Origin: Candidatus Cloacimonadales bacterium
GTDB lineage: Bacteria; Cloacimonadota; Cloacimonadia; Cloacimonadales; JAFGVF01
Reading direction: 5' to 3'
Assembly: GCA_963678315.1 (NCBI GenBank)
Contig: OY782781.1
Span: 2,237,482-2,301,481, forward strand
Length of the DNA stretch: 64,000 nt
The stretch's first letter is position 1. The number at the start of each line of letters is the position of its first letter. The position numbers and the translations under genes are program-made. The notes beneath the pieces are model-generated. The model was not told where the DNA came from. It saw nothing but the letters and a program-made list of their open reading frames with translations, and did not search any database. Of the stretch, positions 7,214 through 58,777 are shown in pieces.

Positions 7214-8322
7214 TTTAAGGCTTCCTTTAATGCTTTAATTAAAACATTTACATCTTCAGTCGTGTGATTTGAAGTTAAACTTATTCTAAGCATCGCTTTA
7301 TTATAATCAACAGTAGGATACTTTGCAGGGAGAACTAATATGTTACTCTTGTACAAACTTTCATACACTTGATTACATGACCTAATTGAATCCATTGGTA
7401 TGGATATAATTTGATGTTTACCTGTGTATTTAATAATGTATTTTTTTAAGGTATGTTTTGCATAGTCGACTATGCTAGCTAGTTTCTCTCTCTTGCAATC
7501 TTGCGAGTGAACATATTCAATTGTAGAATCAAGTGCATAGAAGTATTTTTCTGGGAGTGCAGTCGTATAGATTAATTCTTCAGCAAAATTTATTAAATAA
7601 TCTTTAACCACTTTGGGACATAAGAGGAATCCTCCAAAAAGTCCATAAGCTTTTCCAAAAGTACCAATTTTAATAACTGCTTTATTGGTAAGTCCTAAAC
7701 CATTTTGTCCTAAAACACCGACTGCATGGGCTTCATCTACAATAAATTTATGACTAGCTCTTAATAAATCAACGTCATTTACTGATTTCCCTGACATACT
7801 AAACAATGATTCCGTTACGATGTAGAAGTCTTCAAAAGACTTTGATTTCTTAAGTAAGCTTTGAATATCACAATGTCTATAGCTTCTAATTGTTGCTTCA
7901 CTTTGCTTTAATCCATTAACTATACTATTATGAGATTGCTTATCATAGAACACTTTATCTTTGTTAGAAAATAGATGCTTAAAAGTTGCAATATTTAATT
8001 GGTATCCTGAATTAAATAGTAAAGCTGACTCATAATTATACATTTCAGCTAACTTCTCTTCAATATCATTAATTATTGACAGATTCCCTGAAACAAGCCT
8101 TGATGCAGAACTTCCATAATTTCTATCTTTTGTAAGTTCATCTAAGTGACTCCTAAACTTCTTATCTGAAGTTAGACCTAAATAATCATTAGATGTGAAA
8201 TTTAAGTATCTTGTCTTTCCTATATACGCATATCTGTCAGAAGGTTTAGTAATTGTCTTTAGTTTTCTATATAGATATTGTTCTTGTCTACTTATTAAAG
8301 AATATTCTAAATGCTTAAACAT
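7210..8322 (-). CDS. bioF: 8-amino-7-oxononanoate synthase (class II PLP aminotransferase fold)
   Basis: 370 aa alpha-oxoamine synthase family in bio operon context. The start overlaps the upstream gene. Confidence 0.8.
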   Translation of the reverse strand: MFKHLEYSLISRQEQYLYRKLKTITKPSDRYAYIGKTRYLNFTSNDYLGLTSDKKFRSHLDELTKDRNYGSSASRLVSGNLSIINDIEEKLAEMYNYESALLFNSGYQLNIATFKHLFSNKDKVFYDKQSHNSIVNGLKQSEATIRSYRHCDIQSLLKKSKSFEDFYIVTESLFSMSGKSVNDVDLLRASHKFIVDEAHAVGVLGQNGLGLTNKAVIKIGTFGKAYGLFGGFLLCPKVVKDYLINFAEELIYTTALPEKYFYALDSTIEYVHSQDCKREKLASIVDYAKHTLKKYIIKYTGKHQIISIPMDSIRSCNQVYESLYKSNILVLPAKYPTVDYNKAMLRISLTSNHTTEDVNVLIKALKEALK

Positions 8323-8723
8323 TTGAACCTCTTATGCATAAGTATATTGCTTTTATTATATAGTCCTTCATTAATAAGACCTATATATATCATTGATTTT
8401 GTTGTTTGTTGATTGATAATTGTTGTCACTTCATATAAAATTGCATTTGCGACTATTTCTACTACTCTTGCAAAAGTAATAACTACAATATTACTTTCAA
8501 AATCATAATGAGGATATTGTAGCTCTTTTATTGATAATAGAAAAGCATGTTTATCAAAATTCATTAAATATCTCGCATGTATTCCAGCTGATTGAGCAAG
8601 GAATTCAATAAAATTAAAATCATTCCAATCTTTCATAAGATATTTTGTTTTAATTGATTGAACATCGCAAGATAGAATTTTATTAATCATTAATGAAGTT
8701 TCTAGATTCGTGTTAATTTTCAT
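8307..8723 (-). CDS. Small hotdog-like protein (possible acyl-ACP dehydratase/thioesterase) inside the bio operon
   Basis: 138 aa, translationally coupled (overlaps) with the KAS gene upstream and bioF downstream. The assignment is weak and rests on size and context only. Confidence 0.4.
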   Translation of the reverse strand: MKINTNLETSLMINKILSCDVQSIKTKYLMKDWNDFNFIEFLAQSAGIHARYLMNFDKHAFLLSIKELQYPHYDFESNIVVITFARVVEIVANAILYEVTTIINQQTTKSMIYIGLINEGLYNKSNILMHKRFKCLSI

Positions 8724-9891
8724 TTAAATGATACCTTATGATAACTACAGAATTTTGACCTCCAAAGCCCATACTATTAACAAGTATAGTAAACGATTTC
8801 TTTTCTTTACTTAATTTCATGTTTTTTTTGAGTATATTGAAATCATCAATTGATGACTGACTAAAATTCGATTTTGGTATAAAGCCCTTATCTAAACATG
8901 ATAGTAATAAACATAATTCAGTAAGACCTGAAGCTGCTGATAAATGACCAATAATACTCTTCATAGTCATAACAATAGGTTTATAATCTCCGAATATATT
9001 TTTAAGAACCTTCTTTTCAGCAAGATCATTTGCTTCTGTTCCTGTAGCATGGGCAAGCACTAAATCTATTTGACAAGAACTTAAGTCTGCTTGTCTCAGA
9101 GCGTTAATTATTGCTTGTGTTAATCCTTTACCTTCTGGATTAGGTGAAGTTAAAGAAAAGCAATCCATTGTCGAGGAATGAGCTATTAATTCAATCTTTG
9201 TTTTATTGTACTTCTTAGCAATTTCTTCATTTGCGATAATCATAGATGATCCACCTTCTCCAGGAATAAATCCAAAATCTTCTTGATGGTAAGGTTGATA
9301 TTGACTTCTTGTTAGTTTTAAAGCACCGATTGAATTATATGCGTCTAGTCCATTCCCAGTCAATCGACTATCTCCACAACTACACAATACATAAGCAGAC
9401 ATATTATACTTGATTCTATCGAATGAAGTTCCTAATGCTTGCAGAGATGCCGAACAAGCAGTTCCTAAGCTTATACTCTCACCACAAATACCTGTTCTTT
9501 TTGCTATTACAGAAGCCGCAGTATTCGGTAAATATTGAAGAATCCATGCTTTCTTACTATTATCTGAATTAGCAATTGGAAAATTACCAAAGTTTGGTCC
9601 CGCTCCAACAATAATTGATCCATTTCCCAAGTGTATATATTCTTGATTAAGTCTCTTCCAAACAGAAAGAGCACTAGCTACAGAAAATAGAGCACCTCGA
9701 TTTAGATATCTTTTTTCTGGAAGTCTTTGGACAAAATCTTTATAGTTGAAACTTGTAATAGGAAATGTTCTAATAGAATCCTTTGATGTATAGATTGTTT
9801 GGTCAAAACATTCTAATGATGCTAATATCTCTTTACCATTATTTCCTATATGAGTTATTAATGAATAATCAAGGATAAATACTTTGTTCAT
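8713..9891 (-). CDS. Beta-ketoacyl-ACP synthase (KAS I/II-like) embedded in the bio operon
   Basis: 392 aa with the active-site Cys motif GTACSAS and thiolase fold signatures (MFACQ.., HATGT, GHLSAASG). Confidence 0.8.
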   Translation of the reverse strand: MNKVFILDYSLITHIGNNGKEILASLECFDQTIYTSKDSIRTFPITSFNYKDFVQRLPEKRYLNRGALFSVASALSVWKRLNQEYIHLGNGSIIVGAGPNFGNFPIANSDNSKKAWILQYLPNTAASVIAKRTGICGESISLGTACSASLQALGTSFDRIKYNMSAYVLCSCGDSRLTGNGLDAYNSIGALKLTRSQYQPYHQEDFGFIPGEGGSSMIIANEEIAKKYNKTKIELIAHSSTMDCFSLTSPNPEGKGLTQAIINALRQADLSSCQIDLVLAHATGTEANDLAEKKVLKNIFGDYKPIVMTMKSIIGHLSAASGLTELCLLLSCLDKGFIPKSNFSQSSIDDFNILKKNMKLSKEKKSFTILVNSMGFGGQNSVVIIRYHLNEN

Positions 9892-10286
9892 ATCTGTCTT
9901 TGTTTTGCATAGATGTAATCAACAATATCTGATACTTTTAACACTGGTCCATTACTTATATCTTCAAGGATATCATTAATTCTTTCTTTGGACAAATGAG
10001 AGTATTTCTTTTCTAACTCAAAAAAAAGCTCTTTATTCTCTGATTTATATCTCACAATATCAGTCCTTAGATTTTTTAAGAAGATGATATCGGAGCTAAA
10101 AAAGGATGTGTTACTAGCTAAGGTAAACTCTTTTTTTATATCAATCGCTAACTCCATTAAGTCGATTGATTCAGCTTCTAGCTCTCTTATTATGTAAGTA
10201 TCACTGCTAATTACATTGATATCAATATCTAGTAAATCTGAGATAATTTCTTTGAGTTTTATATAAATTTCTTTTTTATTTAACAT
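9888..10286 (-). CDS. Acyl carrier protein-like protein with C-terminal extension
   Basis: The N-terminal ~80 aa resemble ACP, with an ELEAESIDLMELAIDI motif (phosphopantetheine Ser in DSL/ESI context). Total length is 132 aa, longer than canonical ACP. Confidence 0.6.
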   Translation of the reverse strand: MLNKKEIYIKLKEIISDLLDIDINVISSDTYIIRELEAESIDLMELAIDIKKEFTLASNTSFFSSDIIFLKNLRTDIVRYKSENKELFFELEKKYSHLSKERINDILEDISNGPVLKVSDIVDYIYAKQRQI

Positions 10287-11250
10287 TATTAAATCCTTTA
10301 TCTAAATTAATTATATTCCCATGCATTAACCAAGTTTCTTCCTTAAGAAATAGAGCCATAAATGATGTAATCTCTTCAATTCCTAAGACCTTGTCTTTAG
10401 ATAGACTGACTTGCATATCATTATATCGACCACTCTCTATATATGTTGGTCTAATAATAATTGACTTAACACCCTTTTTTCTGAGTTCATTGCCTAGTGC
10501 TAAGTATATGTTTTCTATAGCAGTTTTACTTGCTAGGTAGAATGATTGTCCTTGATTAAATCTATTTACTGCATTTGATGAGACGTAGATTAGCCTACCA
10601 AAGCGTTTTATTCTCATAATATTACTTACTTCTCTCAAAAGTATAATCTTATTTGTAACATTGATTCTTAGGTATTCTTCAATATCAGCATTTAAAGATG
10701 TAGTAATAAGACTTTCATATCTTGAATGCAAAAAATCAAAAACATAAGCAAATTCTTTATCTTTGAAATAATCAATATTACTCAAAGAATTAAGATCTAC
10801 CTTTATCCATTCTACATTCGTGTTTACTTTTAAAAGAGGCTTATTTTTATTATAGCTAGCAACAACTTTATACTTAGTTAAATCAATTTTATTTATAAGC
10901 TTTTGACCAAGTTCACAAGATCCACCTAGTATTAGTACTCTTGTTTTTAAGTATATGGACTTATAAAAATATATTTTTCCTTTTGCATAAACTTGTGTAT
11001 TGTCATAGAGAGTACAAGTAGCAAGTTCTTCTTTAATCTCTATTTTTGCGCTATATATCTTTGGTTTAGCAAATTTATAAAACTTAAACCTAGAGATATT
11101 TTTTATATGATTAGGCTCAATTTCATTCTTTATAAAATTTATAAATGAAGCTATAATCAATGATCCTGGAACTAAAGGATTACTTGGAAAATGCTCCTGG
11201 TATATTAAATCTTCTTCATTGAAGTGAAATGTACTCTTTAATTGAAACAC
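10276..11250 (-). CDS. Fusion protein: FabZ/FabA-like hotdog dehydratase (N-terminal) + SDR-family ketoreductase (C-terminal)
   Basis: The N-terminus has EHFPSNPLVPGSLI (the FabZ HFPxxPVxPG catalytic His motif). The C-terminus has a Rossmann ILGGSCELGQ and an SDR catalytic YLASK (YxxxK). Confidence 0.7.
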   Translation of the reverse strand: MFQLKSTFHFNEEDLIYQEHFPSNPLVPGSLIIASFINFIKNEIEPNHIKNISRFKFYKFAKPKIYSAKIEIKEELATCTLYDNTQVYAKGKIYFYKSIYLKTRVLILGGSCELGQKLINKIDLTKYKVVASYNKNKPLLKVNTNVEWIKVDLNSLSNIDYFKDKEFAYVFDFLHSRYESLITTSLNADIEEYLRINVTNKIILLREVSNIMRIKRFGRLIYVSSNAVNRFNQGQSFYLASKTAIENIYLALGNELRKKGVKSIIIRPTYIESGRYNDMQVSLSKDKVLGIEEITSFMALFLKEETWLMHGNIINLDKGFNNVK

Positions 11251-13541: not shown

Positions 13542-13570
13542 TGTACACCTTCTATCTTTTAGGGTGTACA
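13542..13570 (-). promoter_or_regulatory. Candidate BirA operator (bioO): TGTACACC-N13-GGTGTACA palindrome over the bioB 5' leader/RBS. A TTGACA -35-like hexamer lies at 13590-13595 on the minus strand.
   Basis: Perfect 8-bp inverted repeat resembling the BirA site half-sites (TTGTAAACC...GGTTTACAA in E. coli), immediately upstream of bioB. Confidence 0.5.
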
Positions 13571-13636
13571 TTTTAATCTTTTGTATTTTTGTCAACAAAT
13601 AATGCTCTATGTGACTCTTTAATCACTAAATGATAT

Positions 13637-13833
13637 TACACCAAAAAATGTACTAGGACTTGAAAATAGCACTATATTATTCCTGTGAGGGCGTAGCTTT
13701 AGCAAAGACTCATGGTAAGAATAACTTCCATAATAACAACAAGAATATATTATTACTCGAGCGTCGATTCTGTATGCTATTTTGCTCAACTATATAGCAC
13801 TATTTTCGTCACAACTAATGCTTCATTTGGGTT
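13637..13833 (+). mobile_element. MITE-like repeat, copy 1 (~197 bp), with imperfect terminal inverted repeats ACACCAAAAAATG...CATTTGGGTT
   Basis: About 85% identical over its length to the reverse complement of 58235..58399. It lies between the bio promoter and the terminator of the upstream oxidoreductase operon. Confidence 0.7.
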
Positions 13834-13856: not shown

Positions 13857-13890
13857 AAAGAGCGAGAATGTATGTTCTCGCTCTTTAAAT
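13857..13890 (-). terminator. Rho-independent terminator of the 2-oxoacid:ferredoxin oxidoreductase operon
   Basis: Minus-strand hairpin AGAGCGAGAA-cataca-TTCTCGCTCT followed by TTTTTATT, directly after the gamma-subunit stop. Confidence 0.8.
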
Positions 13891-15202: not shown

Positions 15203-16282
15203 CTATAAATTCTCTTCAATTTGTGCTTTGATTTCTTCAGGTGTAAATACTATACCACCAACTTTTCCGTAAAATTCAACTGGAATTTTACCATTAACAG
15301 CTAATTTTACATCTTCAACCATTTGACCTAAGTTCAATTCAAAAACCATAACTTTTTTAACTTTATCAGTTAAAGCATTAGCAATAGTTGAATATGGATA
15401 AGGCCATACAGTGATAGGTCTGATTAAACCAATATTCTTACCTTCTGCATTTAATTGGTCAATTGCAGATTTAACGATTCTTGAAGCAGTACCAAAGGCA
15501 ACACAAACCATTTCGTTATCAGGGTTTATATTATATTCTTCTACACGAACTTCATTTTCTTCGATTAATTTATATTTTTTACCTAAATCAATAACATGTT
15601 GTTCTAGAACTGAAGGATCAATTTCTAAAGAGTTGATTTCATTATGATGAGGAGCTTCACCTTCTTCTTTTGGATGAATACACCAATCTTTATGATCATC
15701 ACCTTGCTTAGCTATTTCTTCATCTGAAACTGCGTCTTTAAATTCAACAGGTTCCATCATTTGACCAAGCATACCATCAGATAAAATCATTACAGGTATT
15801 AAATATTTATCTGCTAAGTCAAAAGCTTCAGATGCCATATCAGCAAATTCTTGAACTGATGATGGAGCTAATACAACTGTATGATAGTCACCATGACCAC
15901 CACCTTTTGTTGCTTGGAAATAATCACCTTGAGCAGGTTGGATATCGCCTAAGCCAGGTCCACCACGTTGAACGTTAACGATAACAGCAGGAAGATTAGC
16001 ACCTGCAATATATGAAATACCTTCCATCTTCAATGAGATACCAGGAGATGAAGATGATGTCATTACTCTTTTACCAGTACCAGCAGCACCGTAAACCATG
16101 TTAATAGCAGCAACTTCACTCTCAGCTTGTAAAAAAGTACCATTAACGGTAGGCATTTTTTTAGCCATATATTCAATTAACTCACTTTGTGGAGTAATAG
16201 GATAAGCGAAATAGAGTCTACAACCTGATCTAATAGCAGCTTCAGCGACAGCTTCGTTACCTTTCATTAAAACTTTTGCCAT
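15203..16282 (-). CDS. 2-oxoacid:ferredoxin oxidoreductase, alpha subunit
   Basis: 359 aa pyruvate/ketoisovalerate oxidoreductase alpha family. Confidence 0.85.
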   Translation of the reverse strand: MAKVLMKGNEAVAEAAIRSGCRLYFAYPITPQSELIEYMAKKMPTVNGTFLQAESEVAAINMVYGAAGTGKRVMTSSSSPGISLKMEGISYIAGANLPAVIVNVQRGGPGLGDIQPAQGDYFQATKGGGHGDYHTVVLAPSSVQEFADMASEAFDLADKYLIPVMILSDGMLGQMMEPVEFKDAVSDEEIAKQGDDHKDWCIHPKEEGEAPHHNEINSLEIDPSVLEQHVIDLGKKYKLIEENEVRVEEYNINPDNEMVCVAFGTASRIVKSAIDQLNAEGKNIGLIRPITVWPYPYSTIANALTDKVKKVMVFELNLGQMVEDVKLAVNGKIPVEFYGKVGGIVFTPEEIKAQIEENL

Positions 16283-16293
16283 TCCTTATCTCC

Positions 16294-16503
16294 TTATTTT
16301 TCGATGGTTATTGCTACATCTGGACATGTTGTGTAGCATAATTTACAAGCTATACATGCTTCTTGGTCAAAACATTCAGCATAATTATAACCTTTTTCAT
16401 TAATATTTTCGGAAAATCTGATTATCTTCTTAGGACATGCAGCGATGCATAATCCACATCCTTTACAATAAGAAGGATTAACTGTCATTCTTGCCATAAC
16501 CAT
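16294..16503 (-). CDS. 2-oxoacid:ferredoxin oxidoreductase, delta subunit (2x[4Fe-4S] ferredoxin)
   Basis: 69 aa with two CxxCxxCxxxCP motifs. Confidence 0.85.
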   Translation of the reverse strand: MVMARMTVNPSYCKGCGLCIAACPKKIIRFSENINEKGYNYAECFDQEACIACKLCYTTCPDVAITIEK

Positions 16504-21356: not shown

Positions 21357-21605
21357 TTATTCTGCCAAATAATAAGCTCCTTCATAATCACCTGTTTGGA
21401 TGGTAAACAATGTGTCCAGTTTACTGACTTGATAGTTAGTGGTAATAGTGTTAAACCATGTTCTATCAGTTATCACTAAACCTGAATTGTTTCCTGTAAC
21501 ATTTATTGAAACATCACTCTTAAAGAGAATATTTCCTTCTACAAAATTAGCTGATAAAGTGCTCATAACAATAATTATAGTGATAATAACAATTATCTTC
21601 TTCAT
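21357..21605 (-). CDS. Small hypothetical secreted protein
   Basis: 82 aa with a hydrophobic N-terminal signal-like segment. No similarity recognised. Confidence 0.3.
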   Translation of the reverse strand: MKKIIVIITIIIVMSTLSANFVEGNILFKSDVSINVTGNNSGLVITDRTWFNTITTNYQVSKLDTLFTIQTGDYEGAYYLAE

Positions 21606-21625
21606 TTCTTCCTCCTATTTATTTG

Positions 21626-22582
21626 CTATTTTATAATTGTAATTTTCTTAACTTGACTCCTTTCCCCATACTTAACATTTAGAAAGTATATGCCAGACGG
21701 ATAATCTAAATTCTGAATCTGAAAATATCCTTTCTTTGATTTAAGATTGTTTTCAGAATAAACTAATCTACCTCTAAGGTCATAGAGAGACAGACTTATA
21801 TTCTTATTACTTTTTTCCATAAATTCAATATTGAAACTGTTTATACAAGGTTGCGGATATATCTGTTTGATTAGCTGATTCTGCATAGGTTCAACCTCTT
21901 GAGAATTTGACACTGTTTTATGGTAGGTTACGATTAAGTGCGGATCATATGAATTTGATGAGGTTGGGTTATTTGAATATGAAACATAATCTGCTTCATA
22001 TAGTCCTATATCATGACCTGGAGGGAATCTCAGTCTAAACTGTGAGTATCCACGTGAATGTTCTATATCATTAAGATAGCTCTCAGTAATTGGAAAGGAG
22101 ACCCAGCCAACATGACCACTATCTTGCAGAACACCTACATTGGAAGTAAGTGGTTCAAGATCAAAAACAGAAGGAGCTAAAGTCTCATACTCTATGTGGT
22201 CTATATTTACTGAGTAGGGTGTAGTGTAGTAGTGTGGCCAAACAAGATCTATCCCATTATCCCAATAGCGCCAACAGTAAAGTTGAAGTATTACATTTGC
22301 CACGACGTAATCATTGGGAACAGGAATAGTCTCGAATGAAATAAATGATCTTAATTCAAAAATACCGGTTCCAACAAACTGAGCATAACCGTAGCCAATG
22401 TCTAAAGTTGTTAGATTGGGAAAATTGTAATAATCATGATAATCCATATTATAGTATATAGTCCCAGTCATAGGATTAGGTTCAGAGTATATTGTGTCAA
22501 CAAGAACTGAGTCATCTCTATCAGCATATAATTGTAGAATTAAGCTATATAGAATTAAAAAGATTAATAGATATCTCTTCAT
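21626..22582 (-). CDS. Secreted hypothetical protein with T9SS C-terminal domain (tandem paralog 1)
   Basis: Signal peptide and C-terminal YPQPCINSFNIEF...GIYFLNVKYG...KKITIIK CTD. About 82% aa identity to the adjacent ORF. Confidence 0.7.
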   Translation of the reverse strand: MKRYLLIFLILYSLILQLYADRDDSVLVDTIYSEPNPMTGTIYYNMDYHDYYNFPNLTTLDIGYGYAQFVGTGIFELRSFISFETIPVPNDYVVANVILQLYCWRYWDNGIDLVWPHYYTTPYSVNIDHIEYETLAPSVFDLEPLTSNVGVLQDSGHVGWVSFPITESYLNDIEHSRGYSQFRLRFPPGHDIGLYEADYVSYSNNPTSSNSYDPHLIVTYHKTVSNSQEVEPMQNQLIKQIYPQPCINSFNIEFMEKSNKNISLSLYDLRGRLVYSENNLKSKKGYFQIQNLDYPSGIYFLNVKYGERSQVKKITIIK

Positions 22583-22605
22583 TTCTTCCTCCTATTTATT
22601 TGCTA

Positions 22606-23562
22606 TTATTTTATAATTGTGATTTTCTTAACTTGACTTCTTTTCCCATCCTTAACCTTGATAAAATATATTCCTGATGGATAATCTAAGTTTTGCATTC
22701 GGAAAAGCCCCTTATTTGATTTTAGATTATTTTCAGAATAAACTAATCTACCTCTAAGGTCATAAAGAGACAGACTTATGTTCTTATTACTTTTTTCCAT
22801 AAATTCAATATTGAAACTGTTTATACAAGGTTGCGGATAGATCTGTTTGATTATTTGCTCCTGCATAGGTGTAACCTCTTCAGAATTTGACACTGATTTA
22901 TGGTAGGTTACGATTAGGTGTGGATCATGCGAACTAGATGAAGTTGGGTTATTTGAATAATTTACAACATCTGCTTCATATAGAGATATATCATGACCTG
23001 GTGGAAATCTCAGCCTAAACTGAGAATAATCATGCGATTGTTCAATATCGTTAAGATAGCTCTCAGTAATCGGGAAGGAAATCCAACCAACATAAGCACT
23101 ATCCTGCAAGACCCCCACACTGGAAGTAAGTGACTCAACATCGAAAACTGAAGGTTCTAAGGCTCCAAACTGTATGTGATCAATATTTACTGAATAAGGT
23201 GTAGAATAATAGTGTGGCCATATAAAGTCGGTGCCATTATCCCAATAGTACTGACATTTAAGACGTAACATTACACTTGATATGACGTAATCATTGGGAA
23301 CAGGAATAGTCTCGAATGAAATAAATGATCTTAATTCAAAAATACCGGTTCCAACAAACTGAGCGTAACCATAACCAATTTCTAAGGATGTTTGATTGGG
23401 AAAGTTATAATAATCATGATAATCCATACTATAGTATATAGTCCCAGTCATAGGATTAGGCTCAGCGTATATTGTATCAACAAGAACTGATTCATATCTA
23501 TCAGCATATAACTGTAGAATTATGCTAAGTAGAATTAATAAGATTAAGAGATGTCTCTTCAT
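22606..23562 (-). CDS. Secreted hypothetical protein with T9SS C-terminal domain (tandem paralog 2)
   Basis: 318 aa, same length as and collinear with paralog 1. The upstream RBS/leader sequence is duplicated too. Confidence 0.7.
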   Translation of the reverse strand: MKRHLLILLILLSIILQLYADRYESVLVDTIYAEPNPMTGTIYYSMDYHDYYNFPNQTSLEIGYGYAQFVGTGIFELRSFISFETIPVPNDYVISSVMLRLKCQYYWDNGTDFIWPHYYSTPYSVNIDHIQFGALEPSVFDVESLTSSVGVLQDSAYVGWISFPITESYLNDIEQSHDYSQFRLRFPPGHDISLYEADVVNYSNNPTSSSSHDPHLIVTYHKSVSNSEEVTPMQEQIIKQIYPQPCINSFNIEFMEKSNKNISLSLYDLRGRLVYSENNLKSNKGLFRMQNLDYPSGIYFIKVKDGKRSQVKKITIIK

Positions 23563-23947
23563 TTTTCCTCCATTTTAATGTATAAATTAATTATTTTTTC
23601 AAAACATATTATTAAGATTTAATCTGATAATAAAAAACTTCCCTAACCAAGTAATAGTTTATTTTAAAGCTGATCATTGAATTTATTTAAGTTTCTATAC
23701 TTTCTTACAAGATAAAACATTTAGCAAAAACCATTTTGAAAATAGTTAGTATTTTATTTATTGTCAATTACTTTATATACTTTTTACATAAAAGGGTATT
23801 AGAAAAGGCTTTTTCATGCTAAATGGACGATCTAAACCTGATAATATTTGGTTATACTAATAAGCCATGCTTAATAGCCTCTTGCATTAAACCGCTTTTT
23901 TATGCAAGAGGCAAGTAAACACGACATAATAGCCATTAAAGACAAAA

Positions 23948-23981
23948 AAAGAGAGAGTACTGAAATTCAGTACTCTCTATA
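23948..23981 (-). terminator. Rho-independent terminator after iorB
   Basis: Minus-strand hairpin AGAGAGTACTG-aattt-CAGTACTCTCT followed by CTTTTTTTGTC. Confidence 0.8.
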
Positions 23982-24026
23982 GAACTAAAGCTTAGCTCTT
24001 AATCTTTTAATTTATATAATCTTAAA

Positions 24027-24602
24027 CTATTTTTTAGCAGCTTCGTAACCAGCTTTAAGAGCTTTTACATTAGCTTGAACAATAGCTTCACCTTTTCTAC
24101 CAAAAACAGCATTAATTGCCTCTTCAAGTTTTTCTAAAGAAAGACCTAAAATCTGTGCAGATGCTCCTAGCATTACAATATTCATTGAACGAGCTGAACC
24201 GCAATCTTTAGCAATTGCATCAGCATCTATAAGAATATGGTTTTCTAAGCTTTCAATCTTTTTATACACTTCTTCAGCTTCAGGATAATTAGGAATGTTC
24301 ACAAAAGGTGTTTTGTTAGCAACAACCCAACCTGTTTTGCTTAAGTAAGGTAGGTATCTTAATGATTCCATAGGTTCAACTGAAAGAATTAAATCAGCTC
24401 CACCCATAGGGATTAAATCAGAATGAATTTCATCATCAGAGATTCTTAAATGTGATTGTACATCACCACCACGCTGAGACATTCCGTGAACTTCTGCTTG
24501 CTTAATATTCATGTTTGTTGAAAGAGCTGCATGACCAATCATAGTAGCGATAGTCAAAATACCTTGTCCACCAACACCAGCTAAAATTATATCTTTTTTC
24601 AT
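24027..24602 (-). CDS. iorB: Indolepyruvate:ferredoxin oxidoreductase, beta subunit
   Basis: 191 aa IorB/POR-gamma-like family (AGVGGQGILT), downstream of iorA. Confidence 0.75.
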   Translation of the reverse strand: MKKDIILAGVGGQGILTIATMIGHAALSTNMNIKQAEVHGMSQRGGDVQSHLRISDDEIHSDLIPMGGADLILSVEPMESLRYLPYLSKTGWVVANKTPFVNIPNYPEAEEVYKKIESLENHILIDADAIAKDCGSARSMNIVMLGASAQILGLSLEKLEEAINAVFGRKGEAIVQANVKALKAGYEAAKK

Positions 24603-36400: not shown

Positions 36401-36450
36401 TATATAAGGTCACCCTTACTTGCCTCTTTGAAAAAGAGCCGATTTTTCAA
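36401..36450. repeat. Second copy of the CACCCTTACTTGCCTC...CCGATTTTTCAA repeat (the 3' arm has degenerated)
   Basis: 36 of 40 nt identical to 58652..58691 in the same orientation. Located in the divergent intergenic region between the hybrid HK and the 852-aa gene. Confidence 0.55.
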
Positions 36451-36717
36451 TGAGACCCTTAAGGCAGGAATTAGGAGTTACTGGGAACAAACAGCTGCTA
36501 GCTGGCTAATAGAAGTGATGAGTTAGAGGAGTTAGCATAAAAGTAAACAGAATCCAGGATGGAATAATATTGAAAGTCTAATATCATCAAAAGACTATAC
36601 TTGTTATAGCTTCATTATAGTTTAATATTTTCTATAAATAAGAATATTCATTGACGTTTAATATGCTCTAGTTTAAATTAATATAATAAGAGCTAAGGTA
36701 ATTAATTTATAAATGAG

Positions 36718-53669: not shown

Positions 53670-53765
53670 GGCTGAGAGGGCAGGAATCGAACCTGCCAAA
53701 AACGGTTTTATCCGCTTCCTATCGGTTTTGAAGACCGACTGAACCACCAGATTCATCCTCCCGGC
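53670..53765 (-). tRNA. selC: tRNA-Sec (selC), anticodon UCA
   Basis: Folded by eye on the minus strand. It has a GGTTCGATTCC T-loop with a 5-bp T-stem. The 6-bp anticodon stem (GTCGGT/ACCGAT) carries loop CTTCAAA, giving anticodon TCA. The D-stem is 6 bp (TGAATC/GGTTCA) with 4-nt loop TGGT. The variable arm is long (~23 nt) and the acceptor is extended (8-9 bp) with one C.A mismatch. Exact ends are uncertain to within ~3 nt. Confidence 0.8.
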
Positions 53766-57406: not shown

Positions 57407-58603
57407 CTAATGAATTGCATATTGCTGCACTTCTTCGAACAATAATCTATCTCTTTTTATTTCGTTAGCTAACTCCTCTTTAGTAGGCAAGTAGTGTTTA
57501 TATTTTGAAGCAAAAAGCTGATTATTATCATTTAATATAGAATATTTTACGATAGTAGAATCCGTCTCACTACATAAAAGCATGCCAATTGTAGGATTAT
57601 CATCCTCACCTCTTTCTAAATCATCAAACATACGTACATACATATCCATCTGCCCAACATCTTGATGAGTCAATTTATCTGTCTTTAGATCAATTAGAAC
57701 AAAACATTTGAGAATATAGTTATAGAAAACTAAATCAATATAGAAATCTGAAGTTTCGGTCCTAATAAGCTTTTGTCTAGCAACAAAAGAAAAACCTTTT
57801 CCTAGCTCAAGAAGGAAACTTTGCAGATTAGTTATCAGAGAATCTTCTAATTTAGATTCTGTATAGCTTTTATTTCTTGGGATATCTAAGAATTCTAAGA
57901 CATAAGGATTTTTAAAGAAATCTTTTTGATTTTGTTTCATTTTGGCTGTCTTTTTTTCCATTTCTGCAATAACTGGAGCAGTTTCTTGAGAACTTAACAA
58001 TCGTTCATAGTAGAGAGTATTGTAATTTCTTTCTAATGTTCTATAAGACCAACGCTGTGACACAGCCTCATCTGTATAGTACTGTCTAGCATCACTATTT
58101 GTAATTCTGATTAGTACTCTATAATGACTCCAACTCAATTCGGGTCGCACTGCGGACCGAATTGGGTAAACATTATAAAACTGTCTCATTCTTCTAAGTG
58201 ATCTTTCATTAAAGCCTTTGCCAAATTCTTTTTTAACCCATATGATGCATTAGGTTTGACGAAAATAGTGCAGATTATTTCAGCAAAATAGCTTACAGAA
58301 TCGAAGCTCGAATAATATATATTCTAGTTAAGATTATGGAAGTTATTCTTGCCAAATAATATAGTGCTATTTTTCAAGTCCTAGTGCATTATTTGGGTTT
58401 AACTCCAAAGATAGTTCTTTAAGTAATTTCCTACCATAAGTTGCTCTATCCGCTCCTTTCTGTTCTTCTTCTACAATTCTTTTACCTATGAGCCAATAAG
58501 CTTGAACCATAGCGGAATTTACAACATTACGTGCTTTACTTCTAGCTTTATTTAAAATCTCTTTAATATCTTTTATAAGTTCATTTTCATGTATTTTTAC
58601 CAT
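57407..58603 (-). pseudogene. DUF1016/YhcG-family PDDEXK nuclease gene interrupted by a MITE-like insertion (N-fragment 58367..58603, C-fragment 57407..58250)
   Basis: N-fragment ...AMVQAYWLIGKRIVEEEQKGADRATYGRKLLKELSLEL and C-fragment KKEFGKGFNERSLRRMRQFYNVYP... are contiguous in YhcG-family proteins. Between them lies a 165-bp element introducing a stop. Confidence 0.75.
58235..58399 (-). mobile_element. MITE-like repeat, copy 2 (165 bp), TIRs AACCCATATGATGCA / TGCATTATTTGGGTT, inserted in the YhcG-like gene
   Basis: About 85% identical to the reverse complement of 13637..13833 apart from a ~32-bp internal deletion. Removing exactly 58235..58399 restores a continuous in-frame YhcG-like ORF (…LSLEL|KKEFGKGF…). 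Confidence 0.75.
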
Positions 58604-58651
58604 AATTAACCAGCTCTCATTTGCTTTACTAACTTATTTCCTTCATATATT

Positions 58652-58703
58652 CACCCTTACTTGCCTCTTTAAAAAAAAACCGATTTTTCAAGGAGGCAAG
58701 TAA
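58652..58703. repeat. Palindromic intergenic repeat (13-bp perfect stem CCTTACTTGCCTC / GAGGCAAGTAAGG around an A/T-rich loop containing CCGATTTTTCAA)
   Basis: Shares a ~40-nt block (CACCCTTACTTGCCTCTTT.AAAA....CGATTTTTCAA) with 36401..36440. A related palindrome with GAGGCAAGTAA is at 23877..23920. Confidence 0.6.
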
Positions 58704-58777
58704 GGAACAAGTATAAATTATATAGTTTTTAATTAAGAATAGCCCCTTATTACTTTGTTATTTAAAACAATAACACC

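Follow-up and report, generated by a model that had tools for sequence, protein, structure and literature searches.

A probable family of non-autonomous MITE-type DNA transposons in a Cloacimonadota genome

Prokaryotic MITEs are less than 500 bp in size, carry terminal inverted repeats, encode no transposase, form stable stem-loops and are dispersed, and their young copies are flanked by direct repeats (PMC10969869). The Correia elements of Neisseria, RUP of S. pneumoniae and QMITE2 of Coxiella are among the examples reviewed (PMC10969869), and MITE families are known to be widespread across prokaryotes (PMC11602168). Our literature search found no paper on MITEs in Cloacimonadota. Here, we describe a repeated element from a Cloacimonadota genome, which probably represents a family of non-autonomous MITE-type DNA transposons.

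IS200/IS605-type elements have no terminal inverted repeats; they carry separate short subterminal hairpins, make no target duplication and insert 3′ of a fixed tetra- or pentanucleotide. The ends of IS1380 elements begin with CC, and their target duplications are AT-rich and 4–5 bp in length. The IS1380 transposases serve as the prokaryotic outgroup of piggyBac (PMC10813416). Members of the IS982 family have conserved 5′-AC ends and direct repeats of variable length (PMC7335449).

The stretch of DNA analysed here, the window, is 64 kb in length. It was compared with a sister strain (contig ENA ERZ21831104 ctg97479l, 3.02 Mb), the DNA of which is 97.5–99% identical to the window; the sister-contig DNA compared is ~87 kb in size (positions 101,479–188,555, with a 4-kb gap). 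As stated by the sequence-only reading, the window contains two related copies of the element in opposite orientations. One more copy was identified in the sister strain, giving three loci in the window and the ~87 kb of sister contig.

13639–13833, plus strand: copy 1, 195 bp, the older, decayed form
13682–13712, plus strand: segment found only in copy 1, 31 nt, CCTGTGAGGGCGTAGCTTTAGCAAAGACTCA, unique in the window
58235–58399, minus strand: copy 2, the canonical 165-bp element, AACCCAAATAATGCA...TGCATCATATGGGTT
58380–58399, minus strand: left terminal inverted repeat of copy 2, AACCCAAATAATGCACTAGG
58235–58254, plus strand: right terminal inverted repeat of copy 2, AACCCATATGATGCATTAGG on the plus strand
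16210–16374 of sister-strain sequence L005: copy 3, 165 bp, located by blastn and an nhmmer profile

Copies 2 and 3 are identical at 160 of 165 positions (97%), and both are ~85–89% identical to copy 1. By blastn and pairwise alignment, copies 1 and 2 share 84.7% identity over 124 nt and 92.9% over 42 nt, in agreement with the ~85% given by the sequence-only reading; its limits for copy 2 are exact and its end for copy 1 (13833) stands, whereas the start of copy 1 moves from 13637 to 13639. With ^ marking the border, the aligned copies start with TTA^(A/C)ACC(C)AAA and end with TGGGTT^AAA. The start sequence that had been described as common to the copies is only approximate, since the left end of copy 1 is decayed (CACC-AAAAAATGTACTAGG); its left inverted repeat has lost one C through a 1-nt deletion, and two or three other bases are changed. 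The 31-nt segment is present in copy 1 of both strains only. It is relatively G+C-rich and remains unpaired, having no partner in the other arm. It had been taken for a deletion of ~32 bp in copy 2; however, the alignment gives 31 nt, and because copy 3 is also without them and the 165-bp form is a symmetric hairpin, they are better read as an addition in copy 1.

The flanks of all three copies are unrelated, and the similarity ends sharply at the same bases each time. Within the 64-kb window, conserved blocks (for example GCACTATTTTCGTCA) and the end motif ACCCAAATRATGCAYTAGG are confined to copies 1 and 2. With just two copies in the window and a genome of 31% G+C, segmental duplication or chance similarity of AT-rich DNA could be considered; we give this explanation next to no weight, as the identity stops at common bases in every copy, the E-values for the copy matches range from 1e-32 to 1e-80, three short conserved blocks of copies 1 and 2 exceed the shuffle expectation, and a third copy lies elsewhere. 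Segmental duplication in particular is excluded, given boundaries that are sharp and shared by the copies, flanks without relationship and a third locus. The sequence-only reading had named the lack of further copies, or a segmental duplication with extended flanking identity, as the outcomes that would speak against it; what we found instead is copy 3, so close in sequence to copy 2, and flanks without any relationship.

The tips of the canonical element, AACCCAAATAATGCACTAGG and AACCCATATGATGCATTAGG, match at 17 of 20 positions. The complementarity does not stop there, but runs to the centre; the full 165 bp and its reverse complement share ~72% identity, and the single strand folds as one long imperfect hairpin. 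The terminal inverted repeats had been correctly called imperfect, but the ~15 bp assigned to them is too short, given the 20-bp tips and the fold-back across 165 bp. Compared to dinucleotide shuffles, the hairpin of copy 2 has z values of -5.3 (DNA) and -5.1 (RNA). The hairpin of copy 3 has a z value of -4.1 (DNA); the fold of copy 1 is no better than that of the shuffles (z 0.27). The canonical copy has stops in all six frames, and its longest open stretch is shorter than 40 codons. A six-frame peptide query, aimed at spurious ORFs annotated over other copies, revealed no further copy among 5.8 billion proteins. The element is thus small (165 or 195 bp) and non-coding, as had been noted; it is not especially AT-rich, its G+C content (31%) being the same as that of the window.

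Copy 2 lies within a DUF1016/YhcG-type nuclease gene, between TTA and AAAAAA, and divides it into two parts.

58400–58603, minus strand: N-terminal part of the gene, 68 codons of the DUF1016/YhcG-type nuclease
57407–58234, minus strand: C-terminal part of the gene, in frame from KKEFGKGF onward

When joined, the upstream 78-codon ORF and the downstream 260-codon ORF give a DUF1016_N plus YhcG_C (PDDEXK nuclease) protein. The N-terminal ORF enters copy 2 for 10 codons and meets a stop at 58367. A search with the rejoined protein identified the uninterrupted gene of the sister strain (P0001), which encodes 343 aa and is 97% identical over the full length. At this locus, where the two strains are ~99% identical, the flanks are the same, and the window has exactly 165 extra bases; the empty site of the sister strain reads GGAGTTAAAAAAAGAATTT, and the filled site of the window reads GGAGTTA[AACCCAAAT...CATATGGGTT]AAAAAAGAATTT. 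Because ten homologues from other organisms share the sister-strain spacing L-x-x-E-F-G-K-G-F, the intact allele is the original state. Neither gene fragment in the window carries any lesion other than the insertion, which is therefore recent. The nuclease gene is split by copy 2 in the window strain, and the filled/empty pair is direct evidence of movement of the element.

The same locus bears on a different explanation, in which the copies would be duplicates of an immobile hairpin that acts in regulation or as RNA; a terminator, a small RNA or an invertible promoter segment would be of this kind. Although the hairpin is stable from both strands, copies 1 and 3 are intergenic and one sigma-70-like match lies inside copy 1 (the number of matches in that region is not above chance), copy 2 interrupts a conserved ORF that is free of the element in the sister strain, and the three copies have nothing in common in context or orientation. 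No Rfam family matches the element at threshold. At the Rfam gathering thresholds the sole match in the window is a tRNA-Sec located elsewhere, and a permissive scan over copy 2 returned only sub-threshold plant miRNA-precursor look-alikes, reflecting the hairpin shape. We regard this explanation as very improbable. An invertible promoter or an intron-like insert is excluded by the presence/absence polymorphism inside the ORF and by the in-frame stop.

In the sister strain, copy 3 has the 3′ end of a DUF2391 gene on one side and that of uvrB on the other, and lies ~4.5 kb past the left end of the window. Together with copies 1 and 2, it makes three independent insertions, one of which is polymorphic between the closely related strains; the form with recent activity is that of copies 2 and 3. 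Like prokaryotic MITEs, the element is smaller than 500 bp, has terminal inverted repeats and a stem-loop, contains no ORF and is dispersed, with copies in unrelated flanks and presence or absence at one site; like them, it can split genes or adjoin promoters. Different from them, its one checkable young insertion has no clear flanking direct repeat, the fold-back spans the whole element and not the tips only, and nothing similar in sequence turned up in the collections searched. The filled/empty site, copy 3, the terminal inverted repeats, the hairpin and the lack of an ORF all support the MITE assignment made by the sequence-only reading. The family is a new one, but of an ordinary kind apart from lacking a clear target duplication. 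The active form is the 165-bp element, with ~20-bp imperfect terminal inverted repeats (AACCCAAATRATGCAYTAGG) that extend into the near full-length fold-back. In the mechanism that we propose, a transposase encoded elsewhere in the genome would bind both ends, and the same enzyme would move the element in trans into TTAAA(W) sites.

Copy 3 turned up in ~23 kb that had not been selected for carrying a copy. Extrapolated from this one event, the density suggests tens to perhaps at least 100 copies per 3 Mb. An nhmmer profile built from four sequences was run over the window and the ~87 kb of sister contig; beyond the three loci, it detected neither full nor decayed copies, nor solo ends. No transposase gene with matching ends was found in the same DNA. 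Searches of plasmids and phages by blastn, using the element and its left end, found no copy, and three exact-pattern scans of viral contigs gave no match. Among one genome per species, the exact pattern AATGYACTAGGACTTGAAAA had a single match, which is inside a Bacteroidaceae glycosyltransferase gene and is due to chance; the 20-nt match encoding ...NALGLEK..., in another gene, is a coincidence. The single match of the exact pattern TGGYAAGAATAACTTCCATAAT in the JGI metagenomes, in coding DNA, is likewise a chance match. The UvrC of the sister strain is 73–77% identical to proteins of several metagenomic contigs, and ~55% identical to many Cloacimonadota entries.

TTA is found directly to the left of the element in all three insertions, and AAA or AAT directly to the right, giving the target TTAAA(W). 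The apparent TTAA(A) on both sides could be read in two ways: as a duplicated TAA around an element with the ends ACCC...GGGT, or as a duplicated TTAAA around CCC...GGG. However, the filled/empty pair (n=1) has no duplication longer than 2 bp, at most AA. Subtracting the empty site, GAGTTAAAAAAAG, from the filled one, GAGTTA[165 bp]AAAAAAG, leaves exactly the symmetric AACCC...GGGTT. The empty site has seven A's, whereas the TA, TAA, TTA, TTAA and TTAAA duplication models all predict six; the only exact fits are a symmetric 165-bp insert without duplication, or a 1–2 bp duplication (A or AA) with asymmetric ends. Among A/T runs of at least 7, a change of length between the strains was observed in 0 of 19 coding and 1 of 11 non-coding runs, and the assembly is therefore sound. 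Loss of 1 nt in the A-run of the dead gene after insertion is possible, though not likely (under ~10%). Weighed together with the rarity of inverted-repeat elements without duplication, a duplication followed by the 1-nt loss and a duplication-free insertion are roughly equally probable.

An alternative that departs from the MITE explanation in the mechanism of movement only is a seamless hairpin element, in which the 165-bp fold-back enters TTA^AAW without duplication, through an HUH/Y1 single-strand transposase or a site-specific recombinase and not through a staggered-cut DDE enzyme. It would account for the exact symmetry of the filled/empty difference, for which the duplication models are one A short, and for the fixed TTA to the left of all three copies; the strong hairpin of the single strand and the lack of homopolymer frameshifts in the assembly (none of the 19 coding A/T runs differs) are also in its favour. 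However, there is only one filled/empty pair, the one differing non-coding run of 11 makes a 1-nt loss in the A7 run of the dead gene plausible, the end-to-end palindrome is unlike IS200/IS605-type elements, and none of the copies is linked to an HUH or recombinase gene. We consider this alternative unlikely. Slightly less likely again is its full form, a seamless, site-specific fold-back transposon that enters at TTA^AAW without target duplication and moves through its single-strand hairpin, with the help of a non-DDE enzyme that has so far not been connected with elements of this sort.

The element resembles IS200/IS605-derived palindrome-associated elements and the REP/RAYT system in that it is apparently seamless, sits beside a fixed short sequence and forms DNA hairpins. 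Different from these, it forms one imperfect palindrome from end to end, the tips of which match; it possesses the terminal inverted repeats that IS200/IS605-type elements are without, and has no separate subterminal hairpins. Compared by end letters only, the CCC...GGG reading with TTAAA on both sides resembles the ends and target of IS1380, as well as the TTAA and CCC...GGG of piggyBac; however, it needs the loss of one A from the right flank, and no IS1380-type transposase was seen. The ACCC...GGGT reading with TAA on both sides fits the AC ends of IS982, again by end letters only, but it has the same one-base discrepancy, and no transposase was found.

Copy 1 is situated in a 360-bp spacer between the stop of the gene for the gamma subunit of a 2-oxoacid:ferredoxin oxidoreductase and the start of bioB; in the sister strain, its position upstream of bioB is unchanged. 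Copy 1 is thus fixed in both strains and has decayed ends; it looks like an old copy, probably immobile by now. A terminator-like hairpin also lies in this spacer.

13857–13886: two-way terminator-like hairpin, 24 bp from the right end of copy 1, outside the element; it ends the oxidoreductase operon

The left end of copy 1 is ~100 nt upstream of the bioB ATG (13536). A TTGACA hexamer lies at 13590–13595 on the minus strand, ~42 nt from copy 1; it is presumably the -35 element of the bio promoter in the sequence-only reading, which suggested that copy 1 may influence bio expression. A sigma-70 scan found no complete promoter at this hexamer, though the sigma-70 consensus may not be that of the phylum. 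An inverted repeat, TGTACACC-N13-GGTGTACA, is located at 13542–13570, 6 nt upstream of the bioB ATG, and is kept in the sister strain; a possible role is that of an operator bound by a biotin regulator. The bio operon (L001 13945–16888; ~8300–11250 of the window) includes a ketoacyl synthase gene, an ApeI-like short-chain dehydrogenase gene and two small ORFs between bioA and bioF. This gene content suggests a possibly unusual route to the pimeloyl precursor. At least six runs in the range SRR26952395 to SRR26952404 contain the same organism. One contig from Logan SRR26952396 (L009, 941 nt) stops 38 nt past the stop of the oxidoreductase gamma gene, just before copy 1, which is the end point that repetition of the element in that sample would give.

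Apart from the element, a second small repeat family was noticed. It is a palindromic hairpin of ~51–55 nt, CCTTACTTGCC.C.TTGAAAAA..CCGATTTTTCAAGG.GGCAAGTAAGG, which is intergenic and occurs in both orientations; one copy lies 17 bp from copy 3 of the MITE, and another ~250 bp from copy 2. This family may be REP-like or terminator-like.

36410–36464 of the window: second repeat family
58651–58705 of the window: second repeat family
23889–23918 of the window: second repeat family, degenerate
~16395–16445 of L005: second repeat family
~1240–1295 of L001: second repeat family
53671–53765 of the window, minus strand: selenocysteine tRNA, Rfam 61.4 bits

In the sister strain (L004), selA and selB are located ~1.3–4.6 kb from the position matching the tRNA-Sec; the presence of tRNA-Sec, selA and selB indicates that the organism uses selenoproteins. 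A 300-nt repeat (21573–21872 and 22553–22852, 83% identical) is common to two paralogous genes that lie in tandem and carry T9SS sorting tails. The region 22700–24100, overlapping the second of these paralogues, is far more diverged between the strains, with dozens of indels versus almost none elsewhere. T9SS-type sorting domains are present in neighbouring genes, in keeping with Cloacimonadota.

The apparently duplication-free insertion at TTA^AAW is the point of possible wider interest, and it rests on a single site. If the seamless reading were true, Cloacimonadota would harbour a miniature element of a new mechanistic class, and not an ordinary IS-derived MITE. As a MITE family, which we consider the best explanation, the find extends the catalogue and changes no concept. 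In this uncultured lineage of Cloacimonadota, the element is a miniature transposon with recent activity; it has knocked out a nuclease gene in only one of two closely related strains, and offers a handy marker for strain divergence and ongoing transposition.
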